IMG/VR virus record: IMGVR_UViG_2778261391_000004
Direction: 5' to 3' (one strand)
DNA: 6,391 bases
Origin: a virus
Lineage: Duplodnaviria; Heunggongvirae; Uroviricota; Caudoviricetes
This document shows, in pieces, positions 1-6,281 of the stretch. Both the position numbers and the translations under genes were made by a program. How positions within the stretch are numbered: the first letter of the stretch is position 1; every line of letters begins with the position of its first letter. The notes beneath the pieces were generated by a model. The model had not been told where the DNA came from. It made no database searches and was given only the letters and a program-made list of their open reading frames with translations.

Positions 1-1038
1 AGTAAAACCGTTCAGCTTAATCACGGCTGGAACGATGAGGCATTTAATCCAAAGGATGCGCAGCGTTATCTCTGCCGCATCTGGAGCCTGATGCGCACGG
101 CATTCAAGGATAATGATTTACAGGTCTACGGTTTGCGTGTCGTCGAGCCACACCACGACGGAACGCCGCACTGGCATATGATGCTTTTTTGTAATCCACG
201 CCAGCGTAACCAGATTATTGAAATCATGCGTCGTTATGCGCTCAAAGAGGATGGCGACGAAAGAGGAGCCGCGCGAAACCGTTTTCAGGCAAAACACCTT
301 AACCGGGGCGGTGCTGCGGGATATATCGCGAAATACATCTCAAAAAATATCGACGGCTATGCACTGGATGGTCAGCTCGATAACGATACCGGCAGACCGC
401 TGAAAGACACTGCTGCGGCTGTTACCGCATGGGCGTCAACGTGGCGTATCCCGCAATTTAAAACGGTTGGCCTGCCGACAATGGGGGCTTACCGTGAACT
501 ACGCAAACTGCCTCGCGGCGTCAGCATTGCTGATGAGTTTGACGAACGCGTCGAGGCTGCACGCGCCGCCGCAGACAGTGGTGATTTTGCGTTGTATATC
601 AGCGCGCAGGGTGGGGCAAATGTCCCGCGCGATTGTCAGACTGTCAGGGTTGCCCGTAGCCCGTCGGATGACGTTAACGAGTACGAGGAAGAAGTCGAGA
701 GAGTGGTCGGCATTTACGCACCGCATCTCGGCGCGCGTCATATTCATATCACCAGAACCACGGACTGGCGCATTGTGCCGAAAGTGCCGGTCGTTGAGCC
801 TTTGACTTTAAAAAGCGGCATCGCCGCGCCTCGGAGTCCTGTCAATAACTGTGGAAAGCTCACCGGTGGTGATACTTCGTCACCGGCTCCCACGCCTTCT
901 GAACACGCCGCAGCAGTGCTTAATCTGGTTGATGACGGTGTTATCGAATGGAGTGACCCAGAGGTCGTCAGAGTGTTTAGAAACACATTAAAGCATTATT
1001 TGCCAATGTTTACTCGGCAAGAGAAGATAAGTGGCTAG
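1..1038 (+). CDS. A: Replication initiation endonuclease gpA (rolling-circle HUH nickase), C-terminal part; 5' end lies outside the window
   Basis: Frame 1 is open from base 1 (SKTVQLNHGWNDEAF...) to the TAG at 1036..1038. It contains an HUH motif (PHWHMM, 169..177) and a YIAKY double-tyrosine motif (322..336) like the catalytic tyrosines of phiX174/P2 A proteins. Codon usage is GC-rich like the phage backbone. Confidence 0.9.
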   Translation, partial: SKTVQLNHGWNDEAFNPKDAQRYLCRIWSLMRTAFKDNDLQVYGLRVVEPHHDGTPHWHMMLFCNPRQRNQIIEIMRRYALKEDGDERGAARNRFQAKHLNRGGAAGYIAKYISKNIDGYALDGQLDNDTGRPLKDTAAAVTAWASTWRIPQFKTVGLPTMGAYRELRKLPRGVSIADEFDERVEAARAAADSGDFALYISAQGGANVPRDCQTVRVARSPSDDVNEYEEEVERVVGIYAPHLGARHIHITRTTDWRIVPKVPVVEPLTLKSGIAAPRSPVNNCGKLTGGDTSSPAPTPSEHAAAVLNLVDDGVIEWSDPEVVRVFRNTLKHYLPMFTRQEKISG

Positions 1039-1252
1039 CTGATATAATTGCATAGGATTACATTGTTCGTTTGGATGGTCGGAGCTTGGAGAGAGTAACT
1101 GTCGTTCACTTGCTTTGAGTTTTTCAAAATGACCATCAGCAGCAAATTGGGAACTTCAGGGGGCTGGAGCGTGGCTATTAATCATCCGAAAAATCACTTT
1201 CTCACATTAAGGGATTGTTAGTTTGATTCAACTTTTAAAGCAACTATGGCTT

Positions 1253-1280
1253 TAGACAATGACTGATGTCATGATAGAAT
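1253..1280 (+). promoter_or_regulatory. Candidate sigma70 promoter for the methyltransferase gene
   Basis: -35-like TAGACA (1253..1258), 16-bp spacer, extended -10 TGaTAGAAT (1272..1280), about 40 bp upstream of the ATG at 1321. Sequence-only prediction. Confidence 0.3.
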
Positions 1281-1320
1281 ACATGATCGTTAGTTGAATC
1301 TTTAGCATGGTTATTTGAAT

Positions 1321-2472
1321 ATGAATGTAGTTGATTTATTCTCTGGAGTTGGCGGTTTAAGCTTAGGGGCAACTCGAGCCGGTTTCAACTTGGTTGGAGC
1401 TGTTGAACTGGATAAACATGCTATTTTTTCACATGAGTTAAACTTCCCAAAATCAACACATTTGCATCGGGATGTCTGCTCGCTTACAGCAAAAGATATT
1501 TTGTCTGCATGTGCTGTAAAGGACATTGATTGCGTTATTGGTGGTCCACCTTGCCAAGGATTTAGCACCATTGGAAAAAGGAATGCCAATGATACAAGAA
1601 ATGAATTGTATATTCATTTTTTTAGGTTGGTAAGTGAGTTATCTCCAATTTGTTTTTTGGCAGAGAATGTTCCAGGAATTATGGGTGAGAAATATAATCC
1701 AGTAAGAGAAGAAGCATTTTCTTTAGTTAGAGATGGCTATTGTTTATTACATCCAATAAGGGTTAATGCTTCAAATTATGGAGCACCTACGACACGGACA
1801 CGAATATTTTTCATGGGTTTTAAAAGAGGTTTTATTAATCAGTTAAAAGAATCTGATTTTTTTCCTAAAAATATAATAGAGCAGACTCTTGTCAAAGATG
1901 CACTCTACGGATTACCGCGAACTATAAGAAAAGAGTGGCAGACAGAGGAGCAAGGCTGGCGTTCAGTAAAAATGGATAAAGATGGTTACTATTATGAGCG
2001 ACTTTGGGGACATATACCAAATGGTGTAGGTGATGCAGAATCCATTCAAAATTTAAAGAAAGGATTGGTATCTGGCTTTTTAGGTACAGCTCATTCGGAG
2101 GAAGTGCTCAGGAGATATAGACAACTTTCATTCGGTGAAACTGATAAGATTTCGAGATCACAACGACTCAATCCTAACGGTTTTTGTCCAACTTTGAGAG
2201 CAGGTACAGGAAGTGACAAGGGGAGTTATCAGGCCGTTAGGCCAATTCACCCTACTCAAGCTAGGGTGATAACTCCTCGTGAAGCAGCTAGGTTACAAGG
2301 GTTTCCTGATTGGTTCCGTTTTCATCCTACAAAGTGGCACAGTTTTAGACAGATAGGTAATAGCGTTAGTCCGCTTGTGGCTGAGGCTATGCTATTACCT
2401 TTATACGATTACTGTTTAAAAGTTAAAAAAGAATCTTTGAATACCATGGAACGACCTTGTAGTATTCGATAA
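1321..2472 (+). CDS. DNA (cytosine-5)-methyltransferase (Dcm-like C5-MTase)
   Basis: Long ORF with C5-MTase motifs in canonical order: motif I FSGVGG (1339..1356), motif IV GGPPCQGFS with the catalytic Cys codon at 1552..1554, motif VI ENVPG, and motif X QIGNSVSP near the C-terminus. The ORF track starts at TTG 1315; ATG 1321 is the more likely start. AT-rich codon usage. Confidence 0.9.
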   Translation: MNVVDLFSGVGGLSLGATRAGFNLVGAVELDKHAIFSHELNFPKSTHLHRDVCSLTAKDILSACAVKDIDCVIGGPPCQGFSTIGKRNANDTRNELYIHFFRLVSELSPICFLAENVPGIMGEKYNPVREEAFSLVRDGYCLLHPIRVNASNYGAPTTRTRIFFMGFKRGFINQLKESDFFPKNIIEQTLVKDALYGLPRTIRKEWQTEEQGWRSVKMDKDGYYYERLWGHIPNGVGDAESIQNLKKGLVSGFLGTAHSEEVLRRYRQLSFGETDKISRSQRLNPNGFCPTLRAGTGSDKGSYQAVRPIHPTQARVITPREAARLQGFPDWFRFHPTKWHSFRQIGNSVSPLVAEAMLLPLYDYCLKVKKESLNTMERPCSIR

Positions 2473-3415
2473 AATTACTTAGATCGGAGTTGGCTCCAGA
2501 AGGAGTGGAGCCAATGTAAAACCCTAGAGTTTCATGGATGTTTTCTACTGAAGCTTCGGGTAATAAAGATTCAATATGTATCCTTTCTTTTAAAGACATA
2601 GCAGGGACGTTTATATTTTTAGGATTACTCCACTTCCCATCATAAAATGGCCAATTCTTGATTCTGGAATTATCAATAAATTTAGCTTCTTCTGTATCAG
2701 TGTTTTCAAGAACGATAGCTGTTAAAGTAACCATCTGTTGGCCATCTTTATAAACGAAAGAAGTTAATGGATGTATTCTTATGTCATTTCGACCTTTTAA
2801 TCCATGCCCTATTGCGCGTCTCATAGCATTAACTAGGAGCATAGGGTATTTTTTAAATCCGACATCTTCGACTACTGCATTCGGTGGTAAAAAATCTTGA
2901 GTCAAAATATCGTTTATCTTTTGAAATCTATATGCTCTTGGATCTCGTTCGCTCGGGTTTTTTCCCAAGGCTTCAGGGTTTGCATTTAAAGTGATCTTAA
3001 AAATGTCTTTGGGTTTTAGCTTTGTAACCAAATTAACTATTTCATTTAACTGAGCATTTAAGTCTGAAGGCGTTGCATAATCTAACCATATGATCGTTTT
3101 ATCGTCAAAGTTATAGCGATTGATGAAGTCTCCGCTCATTTCTGGGGTATCACCCAAATTTATGCAAGATAATGGTTTGTTAAACTGTTGTCGGCAATGG
3201 ACATTTTTATCTCCTTCGATAGATATCATTTTAGTCACTTTTAACAAATTATGAATTTGTTTGAAATCTTCGAGGAAAGGCCCCCCGAATCCTATATATA
3301 CATATTCGGATATGTTTGTATAATTGTTTAACCTTCTTAGGGATTCTATAAATAGATTCCTTTCAATGGCTTTGTTTTGCCGCAAATGATATGGGATGCT
3401 TCCGCCAGTACTCAT
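2423..3415 (-). CDS. Hypothetical protein (330 aa), second gene of the GHKL-ATPase operon; candidate effector or partner of unknown fold
   Basis: Uninterrupted 330-codon ORF whose ATG (3415..3413) overlaps the TGA of the upstream ATPase gene (ATGA coupling), with an AAGG Shine-Dalgarno-like element upstream. It has the same AT-rich composition as its neighbours. It contains a glycine-rich YVYIGFGGPF segment followed by acidic strand-end residues (ISIEGD, IIWLDY), reminiscent of a Rossmann-like fold, but function cannot be assigned by eye. Confidence 0.6.
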   Translation of the reverse strand: MSTGGSIPYHLRQNKAIERNLFIESLRRLNNYTNISEYVYIGFGGPFLEDFKQIHNLLKVTKMISIEGDKNVHCRQQFNKPLSCINLGDTPEMSGDFINRYNFDDKTIIWLDYATPSDLNAQLNEIVNLVTKLKPKDIFKITLNANPEALGKNPSERDPRAYRFQKINDILTQDFLPPNAVVEDVGFKKYPMLLVNAMRRAIGHGLKGRNDIRIHPLTSFVYKDGQQMVTLTAIVLENTDTEEAKFIDNSRIKNWPFYDGKWSNPKNINVPAMSLKERIHIESLLPEASVENIHETLGFYIGSTPSGANSDLSNFIEYYKVVPWYSKILF

Positions 3416-4836
3416 TGTTTAGCCTTTTTTAGAAATTCATCAAAACAATATTGACCAACCTCTGTTGGTGGTTGAGTTGCATCATCAAAGAGAAACTCTG
3501 ACACCAGTTTTATTTCACTATGTCTACGGCTAAATTTTATCTGACGTAATGGATCCGAATCCCGAGGCATTGGTAGCTTCGGTTTGAAAACTTCTCCTCC
3601 TATTGAACGTCGAACGTTCGACCAGTTTTCTCTAGGAATTGATTTAGTAAAGTCGACCTCAGTTGTTGAAACCATATTGGATGCAGTATTAATAATTTGC
3701 TTTCTTTCCTCTGCGTTACTTTTCCATTTGTTGGTAAAGTCCGTGAAGAATTTTAAACCCTCGCGCATAAAATCTTTAGTAGAAAGATATAGCTCAGAGT
3801 TACCATCAACACCTCGTTTAGTTGTAGTGATAGGTAGTAATTCAGCATTTGATGATGTGAAAATAACAACACCAGAAATTCCGATGAATTGAGTATGATA
3901 TTGTGGAACTCCAGCTTCTCCCCAACCTGTAAGCTTGGTTTTATCCGCATGTAGGACTACACGATCATTGCATATAATTGTCCAACCAGCTTTTTCTGTT
4001 GTGGAACGGCCTGATAATAAATTCTCTTCTTCTTCCTCACTAGGCAAGTTACGATAAAATCCAACTGCAACTTTAATTGAAACTCCATTTGAATTATTTT
4101 TATATACATAAGGAGCAATGCCGTCGGTATTGCCTTTAATGGCTTCTTCATCAAATATTAAATTGGTGCTATTTGGCTTAACAATACATCCATTTACTTT
4201 AACCTCAAACCCTTTTTTAATGATTAAACTATAATGATTTGCTATGATATTAATCAAAACTTCTTCAAAGCCACGATCCTTTGATAGGGATGCTTTAATA
4301 TCTTTCCTTAAATTGTTAATTTGGATGCTGACGCCTGTTTCGTTTAAGTCAACATTATTTCGCTCTAACTCCAAAGACCAGTTTTCATCATCAGCCATCC
4401 ATTCAGGAGAAATGGTAACTGAAAATTGTTCGTTTTCAGTTTTGCTTAAAATCTGAGCAGATGTCCCCATTTTGAAAATCGCTCGTTTCATTCCGATACC
4501 ATATACACCAATTGTCGGGAGATCATCCGCCTCACGTTCTGCAGGTCTACCCAACCTAAACGCATAGCTTTCCGCAAGTTTTGCTGGAATACCTCCGCAA
4601 TTATCAGTTATTCTGAAACTATTCTCATCAAATTCAATATGAGCATAGTAACCCTTGTAAACGTCTGATTTACCGAAGGTTTGCTCTGGAGTGAAATTGT
4701 TTTTTCTTAATACACCATCTAGGCAGTTATCTAGTAAATCTAGAATTGAGTCAGACAACTCAATATCTCGGGTGAGCATCTCAACAAAGAATCTTTTTGC
4801 TGGAAATGCTGCTATTTTGACGTTTGACGAAACCAT
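3412..4836 (-). CDS. GHKL-superfamily ATPase, MORC/HATPase_c_3-like (474 aa)
   Basis: Bergerat-fold motifs in canonical order in the N-terminal 120 residues: N-box DLLDNCLDG (4717..4740), G1 box DNCGG (4591..4605), G2 box GVYGIGMK (4486..4509). AAGGA Shine-Dalgarno 6 nt upstream of the ATG at 4836. Long ORF with AT-rich codon usage. Confidence 0.8.
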   Translation of the reverse strand: MVSSNVKIAAFPAKRFFVEMLTRDIELSDSILDLLDNCLDGVLRKNNFTPEQTFGKSDVYKGYYAHIEFDENSFRITDNCGGIPAKLAESYAFRLGRPAEREADDLPTIGVYGIGMKRAIFKMGTSAQILSKTENEQFSVTISPEWMADDENWSLELERNNVDLNETGVSIQINNLRKDIKASLSKDRGFEEVLINIIANHYSLIIKKGFEVKVNGCIVKPNSTNLIFDEEAIKGNTDGIAPYVYKNNSNGVSIKVAVGFYRNLPSEEEEENLLSGRSTTEKAGWTIICNDRVVLHADKTKLTGWGEAGVPQYHTQFIGISGVVIFTSSNAELLPITTTKRGVDGNSELYLSTKDFMREGLKFFTDFTNKWKSNAEERKQIINTASNMVSTTEVDFTKSIPRENWSNVRRSIGGEVFKPKLPMPRDSDPLRQIKFSRRHSEIKLVSEFLFDDATQPPTEVGQYCFDEFLKKAKQ

Positions 4837-4859
4837 AAATTATCCTTTTTCGAACAGTA

Positions 4860-4889
4860 ATTTTCGCATTCATGCATAATGGCTGTGAA
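4860..4889 (-). promoter_or_regulatory. Candidate sigma70 promoter for the ATPase/330-aa operon
   Basis: On the minus strand: -35-like TTCACA (4889..4884), 18-bp spacer, -10-like GAAAAT (4865..4860), about 25 nt upstream of the ATG at 4836. Weak match, sequence-only. Confidence 0.25.
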
Positions 4890-5034
4890 CGAAGATTCGT
4901 CTTGATTAGGCGTGCATGATTTTGCATACAAAATGTATGAAAAAAAAAGCTGCCTGTCTATGACTGATAGCCGTCTAGTTACTTGGTTTTCAAGACAAAT
5001 GCGACTGCATCAAAACCGTCTCATGAAGCGGGCG

Positions 5035-5053
5035 GGCGAGGCGGGGAAAGCAC
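5035..5053. other. cos site: 19-nt cohesive-end sequence of P2-type phages (terminase cleavage site)
   Basis: Exact occurrence of GGCGAGGCGGGGAAAGCAC, which I recall as the P2/186 cohesive end, in the expected place between the cargo region and gene Q. Confidence 0.75.
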
Positions 5054-5086
5054 TGCGCGCTGGCGGTGGTGCTGATTTTATTTTTT

Positions 5087-5123
5087 CAGCGTCTCAGCGT
5101 CTCAGCGTCTCAGCGTCTCAGCG
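5087..5123. repeat. Tandem direct repeat (CAGCGTCT)x4 plus partial copy CAGCG, 34 bp downstream of cos
   Basis: Read directly from the sequence: cagcgtct cagcgtct cagcgtct cagcgtct cagcg. Confidence 0.85.
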
Positions 5124-5219
5124 CGTCGTGACGGCGTTTGGATTGTGCGCCGGGGCGTTGGTGTGTCTGCGGGGTGTTTTGTGCGGTGGTGAGCGTGTGA
5201 GGGCGTGATGACGGGGTGT

Positions 5220-5246: not shown

Positions 5247-6281
5247 TCAGTCGTTGTCAGTGTCCAGTGAGTAGTTTTTAAAGCGGATGACCTCCTGACC
5301 GAGCCAGCCGTTTATCTCGCGGATCCTGTCCTGTAACGGGATAAGCTCATTGCGGACAAAGACCTTTGCCACTTTCTCAATATCACCCAGCGACCCGACG
5401 TTCTCCGGCTTGCCGCCCATCAACTGAAAGGGGATGCGGTGCGCGTCCAGCAGGTCTGCGGCGCTGGCTTTTTTGATATTAAAAAAATCGTCCTTCGTCG
5501 CCACTTCACTGAGCGGGATAATTTTAATGCCGTCGGCTTTCCCCTGCGGGGCATAGAGAAACAGATTTTTAAAGTTATTGCGGCCTTTCGACTTAACCAT
5601 GTTTTCGCGAAGCATTTCGATATCGTTGCGATCCTGCACGGCATCGGTGACGTACATGATGTATCCGGCATGTGCGCCATTTTCGTAATACTTGCGGCGG
5701 AACAGCGTGGCCGACTCATTCAGCCAGGCAGAGTTAAGGGCGCTGAGATATTCCGGCAGGCCGTACAGCTCCTGATTAATATCCGGCTCCAGCAGGTGAA
5801 ACACGGAACCGGGCGCGAAGGCTGTCGGCTCGTTGAAGGACGGCACCCACCAGTAAACATCCTCTTCCACACCACGGCGGGTATATTTTGCCGGTGAGGT
5901 TTCCAGTCTGATGACTTTACCGGTAGTGCTGTAACGCTTTTCCAGAAACGCATTACCGAACACCAGAAAATCCAGCACAAAGCGGCTGAAATCCTGCTGG
6001 GAAAGCCACGGATGCGGGATAAATGTCGAGGCCAGAATATTGCGTTTGACGTAAATCGGCGAGCTGTGATGCACGGCAGCACGCAGGCTTTTCGCCAGAC
6101 CGGTAAAGCTGACCGGCGGCTCATACCATCTGCCGTTACTGATGCACTCGACGTAATCCAGAATGTCACGGCGGTCGAGTACCGGCACCGGCTCACCAAA
6201 GGTGAATGCCTCCATTTTCGGGGCGCTGGCGGTCATTTTTTTTGCCGCAGGTTGCGGTGTTTTCCCTTTTTTCTTGCTCAT
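5247..6281 (-). CDS. Q: Portal protein gpQ (capsid portal vertex protein)
   Basis: 344-aa ORF (MSKKKGKTPQPAAKK...DTDND) that I recognise as the P2 Q protein. GC-rich backbone composition, followed by a terminator and positioned next to cos as in P2. Confidence 0.95.
   Translation of the reverse strand: MSKKKGKTPQPAAKKMTASAPKMEAFTFGEPVPVLDRRDILDYVECISNGRWYEPPVSFTGLAKSLRAAVHHSSPIYVKRNILASTFIPHPWLSQQDFSRFVLDFLVFGNAFLEKRYSTTGKVIRLETSPAKYTRRGVEEDVYWWVPSFNEPTAFAPGSVFHLLEPDINQELYGLPEYLSALNSAWLNESATLFRRKYYENGAHAGYIMYVTDAVQDRNDIEMLRENMVKSKGRNNFKNLFLYAPQGKADGIKIIPLSEVATKDDFFNIKKASAADLLDAHRIPFQLMGGKPENVGSLGDIEKVAKVFVRNELIPLQDRIREINGWLGQEVIRFKNYSLDTDND

Follow-up and report, generated by a model that had tools for sequence, protein, structure and literature searches.

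A prophage C5 cytosine methyltransferase as the probable modification arm of a mobile cassette with a MORC-like ATPase and a Methyltransf_35 protein

The 6,391-nucleotide stretch of viral DNA considered here (IMG/VR record IMGVR_UViG_2778261391_000004, Caudoviricetes; hereafter the window) encodes a C5 DNA cytosine methyltransferase (MTase) at positions 1321-2472 on the forward strand, facing a two-gene operon on the reverse strand that encodes a MORC-like GHKL ATPase and a protein of the Methyltransf_35 family (PF20553). Comparative analysis makes it highly probable that this MTase is part of a conserved, mobile functional unit of three genes and not an orphan. It also seems probable, with appreciably less certainty, that the cassette has a methylation-gated, nuclease-free role in defence or a comparable restriction-like role. 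The explanation as a whole, according to which the MTase provides modification within a mobile cassette that also contains the MORC-like ATPase and the Methyltransf_35 protein and that the prophage carries in the P2 gpA/cos hotspot as cargo for lysogenic conversion, is assigned a probability of about 0.6, and any particular chemistry for the effector must be considered doubtful.

Two-way linkage of the methyltransferase and the ATPase operon

Linkage was assessed from both sides. The forward sample consisted of 80 species-representative genome loci found via the ATPase, one per species, from Proteobacteria, Cyanobacteria, Acidobacteria, Firmicutes, Chloroflexi, Latescibacterota, and other phyla. 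The Methyltransf_35 gene directly follows the ATPase gene in 74 of the 80 loci, with a gap of -42 to +31 nucleotides (nt) in all 74, and a C5 MTase homolog is adjacent to the ATPase operon (<700 nt) in 59/80 and within 2.4 kb in 64/80. The MTase gene occurs in three arrangements, namely upstream and co-directional (~28 loci), convergent as in the window (22 loci), and downstream and co-directional (~9 loci); among the 16 loci with no MTase within 2.4 kb, three are cut by contig ends. The reverse sample comprised IMG/VR viral contigs found via the MTase and binned by MTase identity. Here a GHKL ATPase is adjacent in 37 of 37 cases at an identity of at least 50% and in 17 of 19 at 41-50% (the other two lying at contig ends), falling to 3/10 at 35-41% and 0/12 below 35%, counts that overstate the number of independent cases because many of the viral loci are near-duplicates.

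A sequence-only reading of this DNA had left two options for the MTase: an orphan serving as anti-restriction or epigenetic cargo, or the self-protection arm of the adjacent ATPase operon. The first is contradicted by the observation that this clade almost never occurs without an adjacent GHKL ATPase, and usually has Methyltransf_35 as well, a pattern seen from both search directions, in different phyla, and with each of three gene orders. Its strict form, a solitary Dcm-type MTase lying beside an unrelated operon by chance, accords with the lack of a restriction endonuclease and with the frequency of orphan MTases in prophages, and is nevertheless very improbable given the two-way linkage and the co-transfer of the cassette among P2-like, lambdoid, and filamentous prophages and integrative and conjugative elements (ICEs). 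The second option is the better supported by linkage, context, and analogy, with the correction that the partner is not a plain ATPase operon, as it comprises a MORC-like GHKL ATPase together with a second protein of SAM (S-adenosylmethionine)-methyltransferase fold.

The C5 methyltransferase and its target-recognition region

The MTase gene begins with the ATG at 1321 and ends with the stop codon at 2470-2472, encoding 383 amino acids; an in-frame TTG is found upstream at 1315, and the RefSeq entry with the same coordinates, WP_029401229, is named ‘DNA cytosine methyltransferase’. The protein matches Pfam PF00145 over profile positions 1-318 of 324 (E 1.7e-59, 202.3 bits, cut-off 22) and the NCBIfam model TIGR00675 dcm (175.3 bits, cut-off 100.65). 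All of the C5-MTase motifs named in the sequence-only reading are present, including FSGVGG at residues 7-12 (nt 1339-1356), PPCQ at 76-79 (nt 1546-1557), ENV at 115-117 (nt 1663-1671), and QIGNSV at 344-349 (nt 2350-2367). The catalytic cysteine is C78, and the motif residues are invariant across 13 cassette MTases. A sigma-70-like promoter candidate (TAGACA-16-TG-TAGAAT, 1253-1280, forward strand), a pattern match only, lies upstream of the gene, with 10 of 12 consensus positions and an extended -10 element, and a T7 homopolymer is found within the gene at 1857-1863.

The target-recognition region does lie between the motifs, at about residues 185-300, as that reading proposed. Its description as variable does not hold, since across cassette MTases the region is as conserved as the catalytic core, aligning without gaps at ~45-55% identity across phyla. 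Because it is gap-free and conserved like the core, unlike the corresponding region of ordinary Type II MTases, comparison of the sequences suggests that the cassette enzymes recognise one shared target or very similar targets.

The closest solved structure is PDB 3g7u, roughly 70% identical over the full length (E 2e-154), which is presumably the cytosine MTase of the E. coli O157:H7 prophage CP-933R. It belongs to the same clade, the full-length match includes the target-recognition region, and the trio of strain EDL933 is arranged identically to that of the window; the CP-933R cassette differs in being another allele and in residing in a lambdoid and not a P2-like prophage. Neither a specificity nor a function was found for the 3g7u / CP-933R cassette MTase, and the PDB sequence search for relatives of known specificity returned only this uncharacterised structure plus HaeIII and HhaI, which match in the catalytic half. 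The label ‘HaeIII’ encountered in a search of 5.8 billion proteins looks like an automatic annotation with no evidence behind it and was set aside, the other names there being generic. A methylome paper on serotype O111 was unable to detect 5-methylcytosine (5mC).

The partner operon encodes a MORC-like ATPase and a second methyltransferase-fold protein

The ATPase gene (3412-4836, reverse strand) encodes 474 amino acids with a GHKL domain, an S5-type transducer domain, and a basic C-terminal domain. The protein matches Pfam HATPase_c_3 (34.4 bits, cut-off 25) and contains the Bergerat-fold motifs, with N37, D40, D78, G81, G82, G110, G113, and G115 invariant; the S5-fold transducer domain follows the GHKL domain. 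Its predicted fold is of the MORC-like GHKL+S5 type, with MORC3, SMCHD1, and MORC2 the nearest neighbours in the fold search. GHKL motif I reads D33-x3-N37-x2-D40, with Asp33 (nt about 4738-4740) invariant in 21 of 21 aligned family members; this residue presumably aligns with E29 of MutL, the catalytic Glu that usually acts as general base in this motif, as in MutL and MORC. No conserved acidic or His residues were found in the C-terminal domain, and no signature of a named paraMORC subfamily is present in the ATPase: the ExxxH of paraMORC2 is missing (the nearest pattern, E307-x6-H314, falls in a low-confidence loop), as are the C-terminal nuclease of paraMORC3 and the TIR domain of paraMORC4. 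Upstream of the operon, at 4860-4960 on the reverse strand, are two sigma-70-like promoter candidates, pattern matches only, with 9 of 12 consensus positions each.

The downstream gene, encoding the Methyltransf_35 protein of 330 amino acids (2423-3415, reverse strand), is joined to the ATPase gene by an ATGA stop/start overlap at 3412-3415 on the same strand (...AAA CAA TGA / ATG AGT...), an arrangement of translational coupling. The protein matches PF20553 over positions 2-307 of 309 (286.1 bits, cut-off 27) and has a predicted class I SAM-dependent methyltransferase fold with SAM-binding residues. Conserved across 144 family representatives at 29-50% identity are G44 and G45 of the glycine loop, the acidic residue E67 that closes strand beta-2, D112 and Y113 of a W-L-D-Y motif following strand beta-4, and R12, K15, and R19 of a basic N-terminal helix. 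Because these features persist, the protein looks catalytically competent. Structurally it is nearest to N- and C-methylating RNA methyltransferases, with COMT-type O-methyltransferases scoring slightly lower, and the Pfam name ‘putative O-methyltransferase’ for PF20553 is an unsupported guess. At 50% identity, 1.84 billion representatives yielded ~1,970 clusters of the family, which extends over many phyla; all of the best 150 clusters (150/150) are stand-alone proteins. Lenient scans of 37 members revealed no second Pfam family, and the PDB profile search with the Methyltransf_35 protein returned noise only.

The 3' ends of the MTase and Methyltransf_35 genes overlap convergently by 50 bp (2423-2472, from the open reading frame (ORF) coordinates). 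In the 22 convergent-order loci, the genes mostly overlap or abut, with gaps of about -49 to +34 nt and two wider ones (87 and 579 nt), and such overlap may permit regulation through transcriptional interference.

The properties of the Methyltransf_35 protein bear on an alternative in which the cassette is a two-methyltransferase modification module without restriction, where the C5 MTase and Methyltransf_35 both modify DNA, to shield the phage or host genome from other restriction systems or for an epigenetic purpose, and the ATPase acts as loader or clamp. Conservation of the glycine loop for SAM binding, of the acidic residue closing beta-2, and of the D-Y pair resembling motif IV is in keeping with this idea, as are the best fold matches, which are nucleic-acid base methyltransferases, the lack of a nuclease, the existence of pairs with no linked C5 MTase, and a frameshift variant of the MTase that is apparently tolerated (the last two are described below). 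The module is nonetheless considered improbable, as it leaves unexplained the invariable need for an ATP-driven MORC-like clamp, the HEPN or DUF4263 nuclease domains that occupy the Methyltransf_35 position in sister systems, and the embedding of the pair in a DISARM defence operon; the cassette also occupies slots for lysogen-expressed prophage genes and is essentially absent from virulent phages.

Absence of a nuclease and comparison with known systems

The sequence-only reading had reported no classical Type II endonuclease nearby, and this was confirmed, as no ORF of the island matched a nuclease family in Pfam, NCBIfam, or PADLOC. The only island genes besides the MTase are those for the HATPase_c_3 ATPase and the Methyltransf_35 protein, and neither conserved-residue inspection nor fold searches revealed a nuclease in these partners, which have a predicted MORC-like GHKL fold and a predicted class I methyltransferase fold, respectively. 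The cassette therefore does not qualify as a classical Type II restriction-modification (R-M) system, there being no recognisable restriction endonuclease gene adjacent. PADLOC matches in the window are confined to generic MTase, DruM, and DrmMII models, all of them to the MTase, while PglZ, PglX, BrxC, BrxL, DrmA, DrmB, and DrmC are missing, so that the window lacks the core genes of DISARM and BREX. As proposed here, the cassette would resemble BREX and DISARM in having a dedicated self-marking MTase, a required ATPase, and restriction by means other than classical cleavage. Two further identities were rejected: WonAB, in which WonA is an ABC ATPase, and VcSduA, a paraMORC3-DUF4263 protein (PMC12137116).

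Neighbourhoods containing MORC/paraMORC and cytosine methylase genes have been predicted as R-M systems (Iyer, Abhiman & Aravind 2008, PMC2292703). They share with the cassette the linkage of a C5 DNA methylase to a GHKL+S5 ATPase and the location on mobile elements. Their further components are superfamily II helicases and restriction endonuclease, HNH, Vsr, or TIR domains, whereas the sole partner here is PF20553, which is absent from those descriptions (PMC2292703). Among paraMORC3 proteins, in which a GHKL ATPase is fused to a DUF4263 nuclease, VcSduA has been validated as anti-phage (PMC12137116). A comparable pair in the P2-like phage PhiR44_1, Dcm plus paraMORC3 (GHKL-DUF4263, Shedu type I-D), occupies the same P2 hotspot with a convergent C5 MTase facing a GHKL ATPase. 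Its MTase and ATPase clades are unrelated to those of the cassette (25% identity; 29% over a partial alignment), and the paraMORC3 effector is a fused PD-(D/E)xK nuclease, whereas the window has no nuclease and instead has a separate methyltransferase-fold gene after the ATPase.

The same MTase clade (42-57% identical) is also found beside longer GHKL ATPases of 546-631 amino acids with a C-terminal helical domain, which at one locus (L006) is Hypoth_Ymh PF09509, a HEPN family. At several loci (L004, L006, L007, L023, L035, and L165-L168), two GHKL ATPases lie next to one MTase, a short one with Methyltransf_35 and a long helical/Ymh-HEPN-like one, and the long ATPases often contain low-complexity Q/D-rich or P-rich linkers (e.g., L114 and L111). 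Fusions of paraMORC and Ymh have been described in R-M neighbourhoods and likened to PrrC/RloC (Anantharaman 2013, PMC3710099). The MTase clade and the adjacent GHKL ATPase are common to these systems and the cassette; the difference lies in the effector, which is a fused predicted RNase there, whereas the ATPase of the window is short (474 amino acids) and its partner is Methyltransf_35.

Another alternative is an abortive-infection guard, in which the ATPase would sense infection or interference with methylation and Methyltransf_35 would methylate essential tRNA or rRNA and stop translation, the MTase being a linked and mechanistically separate R-M remnant, in analogy to the guarding of R-M systems by PrrC/RloC. 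Such a guard is judged unlikely: the window has no restriction enzyme to guard, the conserved target-recognition region and the tight two-way linkage point to direct dependence on the methyl mark, and fold similarity does not identify a substrate. A more remote likeness is shown by the HEF_HK/Response_reg_2 ‘kinase-methylase’ systems (Bellieny-Rabelo 2021, PMC8011034), which are placed under ‘Unknown systems’ in supplementary file 7 of Rousset 2022. They likewise combine a C5 MTase with a protein bearing an N-terminal HATPase_c_3 domain in prophage or defence contexts. The window lacks their other components, namely a GIY-YIG nuclease, a receiver-like partner, a histidine kinase-like domain, and a second HATPase_c.

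Proposed function and significance

In the favoured explanation, a defence cassette with the MTase as its modification component, this enzyme, whose class is well established, would mark the DNA of host and prophage as self by forming 5mC at a single fixed, short motif. The ATPase and Methyltransf_35 would form a complex; as fold and gene coupling suggest, the GHKL+S5 protein may dimerise on ATP binding and clamp DNA in the manner of MORC/MutL-type proteins. Judging from genomic context, the complex would then act on unmarked DNA, such as that of an incoming phage or plasmid, and block it without a classical nuclease. The Methyltransf_35 protein most likely serves either as the effector, methylating nucleic acid with the methyl group of SAM, or as the subunit that reads sites for a BREX-like exclusion complex, an assignment proposed because sister systems put a HEPN or DUF4263 nuclease domain in that position. 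A more specific variant, which we regard as rather unlikely, holds that the restriction arm is itself a methyltransferase, with a clamp on C5-unmarked DNA directing Methyltransf_35 to deposit harmful methyl groups. Invaders would then be written on and not cut, by replication-blocking base lesions on their DNA or inactivating marks on essential RNA, and the cassette would contain two opposed methyltransferases.

The theme of a C5 MTase with a paraMORC has been known, and predicted to act in restriction, since 2008, with almost none of its instances tested, and the present combination of partners has been catalogued but not described. The variant is common across phyla and is located, without a nuclease, in proven defence hotspots. 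If the cassette does defend, it would be a compact three-gene addition to the small group of methylation-based, non-cleaving immunity systems (BREX, DISARM) and a tractable bacterial model for the reading of DNA methylation by MORC-type ATPases, an open question for eukaryotic MORCs, and it would give a role to the structural-genomics protein 3g7u and to the Pfam family PF20553.

Natural variation and evidence against a defence cassette

Several observations weigh against the favoured explanation, chief among them the 11 cyanobacterial loci in which the ATPase and Methyltransf_35 pair is present and there is room nearby for an MTase, with none there; at two further loci (L067 and L074) the ATPase stands alone. 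Since pairs without a linked MTase exist, the pair cannot be obligately lethal unless an unlinked MTase serves it. At some loci, the pair holds conserved chromosomal positions between ndh genes, which suggests vertical inheritance or domestication. In E. coli NMBU-W10C18 (L161, NZ_CP044403.1), a frameshift from T7 to T6 splits the MTase into two coding sequences with both partners intact; this could be a homopolymer sequencing error or the product of a slippage-prone on/off tract. Co-variation of the MTase with the ATPase is also weaker (Mantel r 0.34) than the tight co-evolution of the ATPase with Methyltransf_35 (Mantel r 0.80), the significance of such tests being overstated for related sequences; the lower value is consistent with occasional module exchange, as the sequences suggest. 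To these points may be added Asp33 in place of the usual motif I Glu, owing to which ATP turnover may be atypical, and the failure to recognise a nuclease or any other known toxic domain in the cassette. PADLOC-DB v2 has no model for the ATPase or the Methyltransf_35 protein, NCBIfam likewise gave no match, and the literature yielded neither a mention of Methyltransf_35 / PF20553 nor an experimental test of the cassette.

Other variants were noted at related loci. Enterohaemorrhagic E. coli (EHEC) cassettes are full length in 172 of 173 cases. In O157:H7 strain F6294 (L162, 4228-5987), the MTase and two thirds of Methyltransf_35, from its C-terminal side, were lost in a single deletion that spared the ATPase, a pattern that fits the idea that MTase loss is tolerated only with loss of the partner, as far as one event in adjacent genes can be read in this way. 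In some viral contigs (L090, L092, and L093, compared with L084-L089), the MTase shares 81-82% identity with that of the window, against only 61-64% for the ATPase and Methyltransf_35, a mismatch indicating that the modification gene and the operon of its partners have recombined with respect to each other. In Nostocales-type cyanobacteria (L024; L031, about 5600-12700; L021), the pair lies between ndhF-like and ndhD-like genes, recognised from N-terminal sequences only, with no MTase nearby. Two other cyanobacterial loci (L034, 10917-11735; L056, 6922-7728) show the order ATPase, C5 MTase, and a conserved protein of ~270 amino acids, without Methyltransf_35; the last protein may be another effector variant.

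Mobility and distribution of the cassette

Of 5,426 complete E. coli genomes, 219 contain the cassette, O157:H7 and O111 strains among them. The P2-type allele accounts for 46 of the 5,426 and is essentially identical throughout. A second allele, with ~67% nucleotide identity and the same convergent layout, was found in 173 EHEC genomes and in CP-933R, a lambdoid prophage of O157:H7 EDL933; the cassette MTase of EDL933 shares 62% identity with that of the window, compared with roughly 70% for the 3g7u chain. Among 50,697 phage records, the cassette was found in one, that of a temperate inovirus; virulent phage genomes are essentially devoid of it. The trio forms ORF1-3 of the Pseudomonas inovirus PfAC20, in which a second, shorter ‘DNA cytosine methyltransferase’ (ORF9; L163, 5438-6082) is found beside the cassette MTase. 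In Pseudomonas syringae, the cassette forms a simple island downstream of rpoD.

In Salmonella and Enterobacter ICEs, the cassette is part of a five-gene block consisting of the ATPase, Methyltransf_35, the MTase, a long GHKL ATPase, and Vsr, flanked by ScoMcrA-like HNH genes and ArdC. On plasmid pR24_2 of Microvirga terrae (L171, 8745-26738), the ATPase/Methyltransf_35 pair lies within a class 1 DISARM operon, where it may be an accessory module; the co-directional order is helix-turn-helix gene, C5 MTase, Vsr, drmD, drmMI, the pair, drmA, DUF1998, and drmC, and the C5 MTase of this operon is of a different clade from the cassette MTase. An Abi family gene is located near this operon. Vsr genes accompany cassette or pair loci in ICEs and on one plasmid, an indirect hint that the cassette MTase may form 5mC at a defined motif. 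In a further alternative, a repair accessory, the MutL-like ATPase and its partner would process T:G mismatches arising from 5mC deamination through a Vsr/MutL-like pathway. This notion carries very little probability, given that neither partner contains a nuclease or glycosylase, that neither the window nor most of the loci have Vsr, that the cassette occurs in mobile defence-hotspot contexts, and that the ATPase is structurally nearer to MORC than to MutL.

The island, the P2 hotspot, and flanking genes

The composition profile and six-frame ORF list of the window reveal an island of ~37% GC (37.1%) between GC-rich flanks (55.1%). This low-GC cargo island of ~4 kb (969-4999) occupies the P2-type hotspot that separates gpA from cos/portal; sequence homology with PhiR44_1, a P2-like phage, ends at position 968 and restarts at 5000. 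Other P2-like phages have different cargo in the same slot, including Fic/VbhT, DUF3850, DUF4209, cytolethal distending toxin, or Dcm plus paraMORC3, and flank homology, the junctions, and cos together identify the island as part of the variable gene set between gpA and cos/portal. The P2 hotspot has been recognised as a reservoir of anti-phage systems (Rousset 2022, PMC9122126), and the exact trio is catalogued by protein accession among its contents, with no function given (Rousset 2022, Table S, file 6). A 2026 paper on P2/P4 contains no relevant text on the cassette, and no nucleotide match to the island was found in the phage database.

The left flank contains the 3' portion of gpA, the P2-type replication gene A (91-1038, forward strand; PF05840, E 1.6e-39). 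The cargo junction at 968 falls inside its 3' end, so the last ~23 codons of gpA (969-1038) are island-specific; in E. coli 7/2, RefSeq flags gpA as a pseudogene ‘missing C-terminus’ (L001, 4975-7026). On the right flank is the P2-type portal protein gene (gpQ; 5247-6281, reverse strand; TIGR01540, E 1.2e-74; ‘phage portal protein’ in RefSeq). No RNA families were detected in the window with Rfam. Between the island and the portal gene, the sequence GGCGAGGCGGGGAAAGCAC at 5035-5053 (forward strand), an exact match, is presumably the cohesive-end (cos) site of P2. Next comes, at 5086-5123, a perfect tandem repeat of 8 bp (TCAGCGTC x 4.8), and a 98-amino-acid ORF (4912-5208) that covers both the cos sequence and the repeat is probably not a gene.

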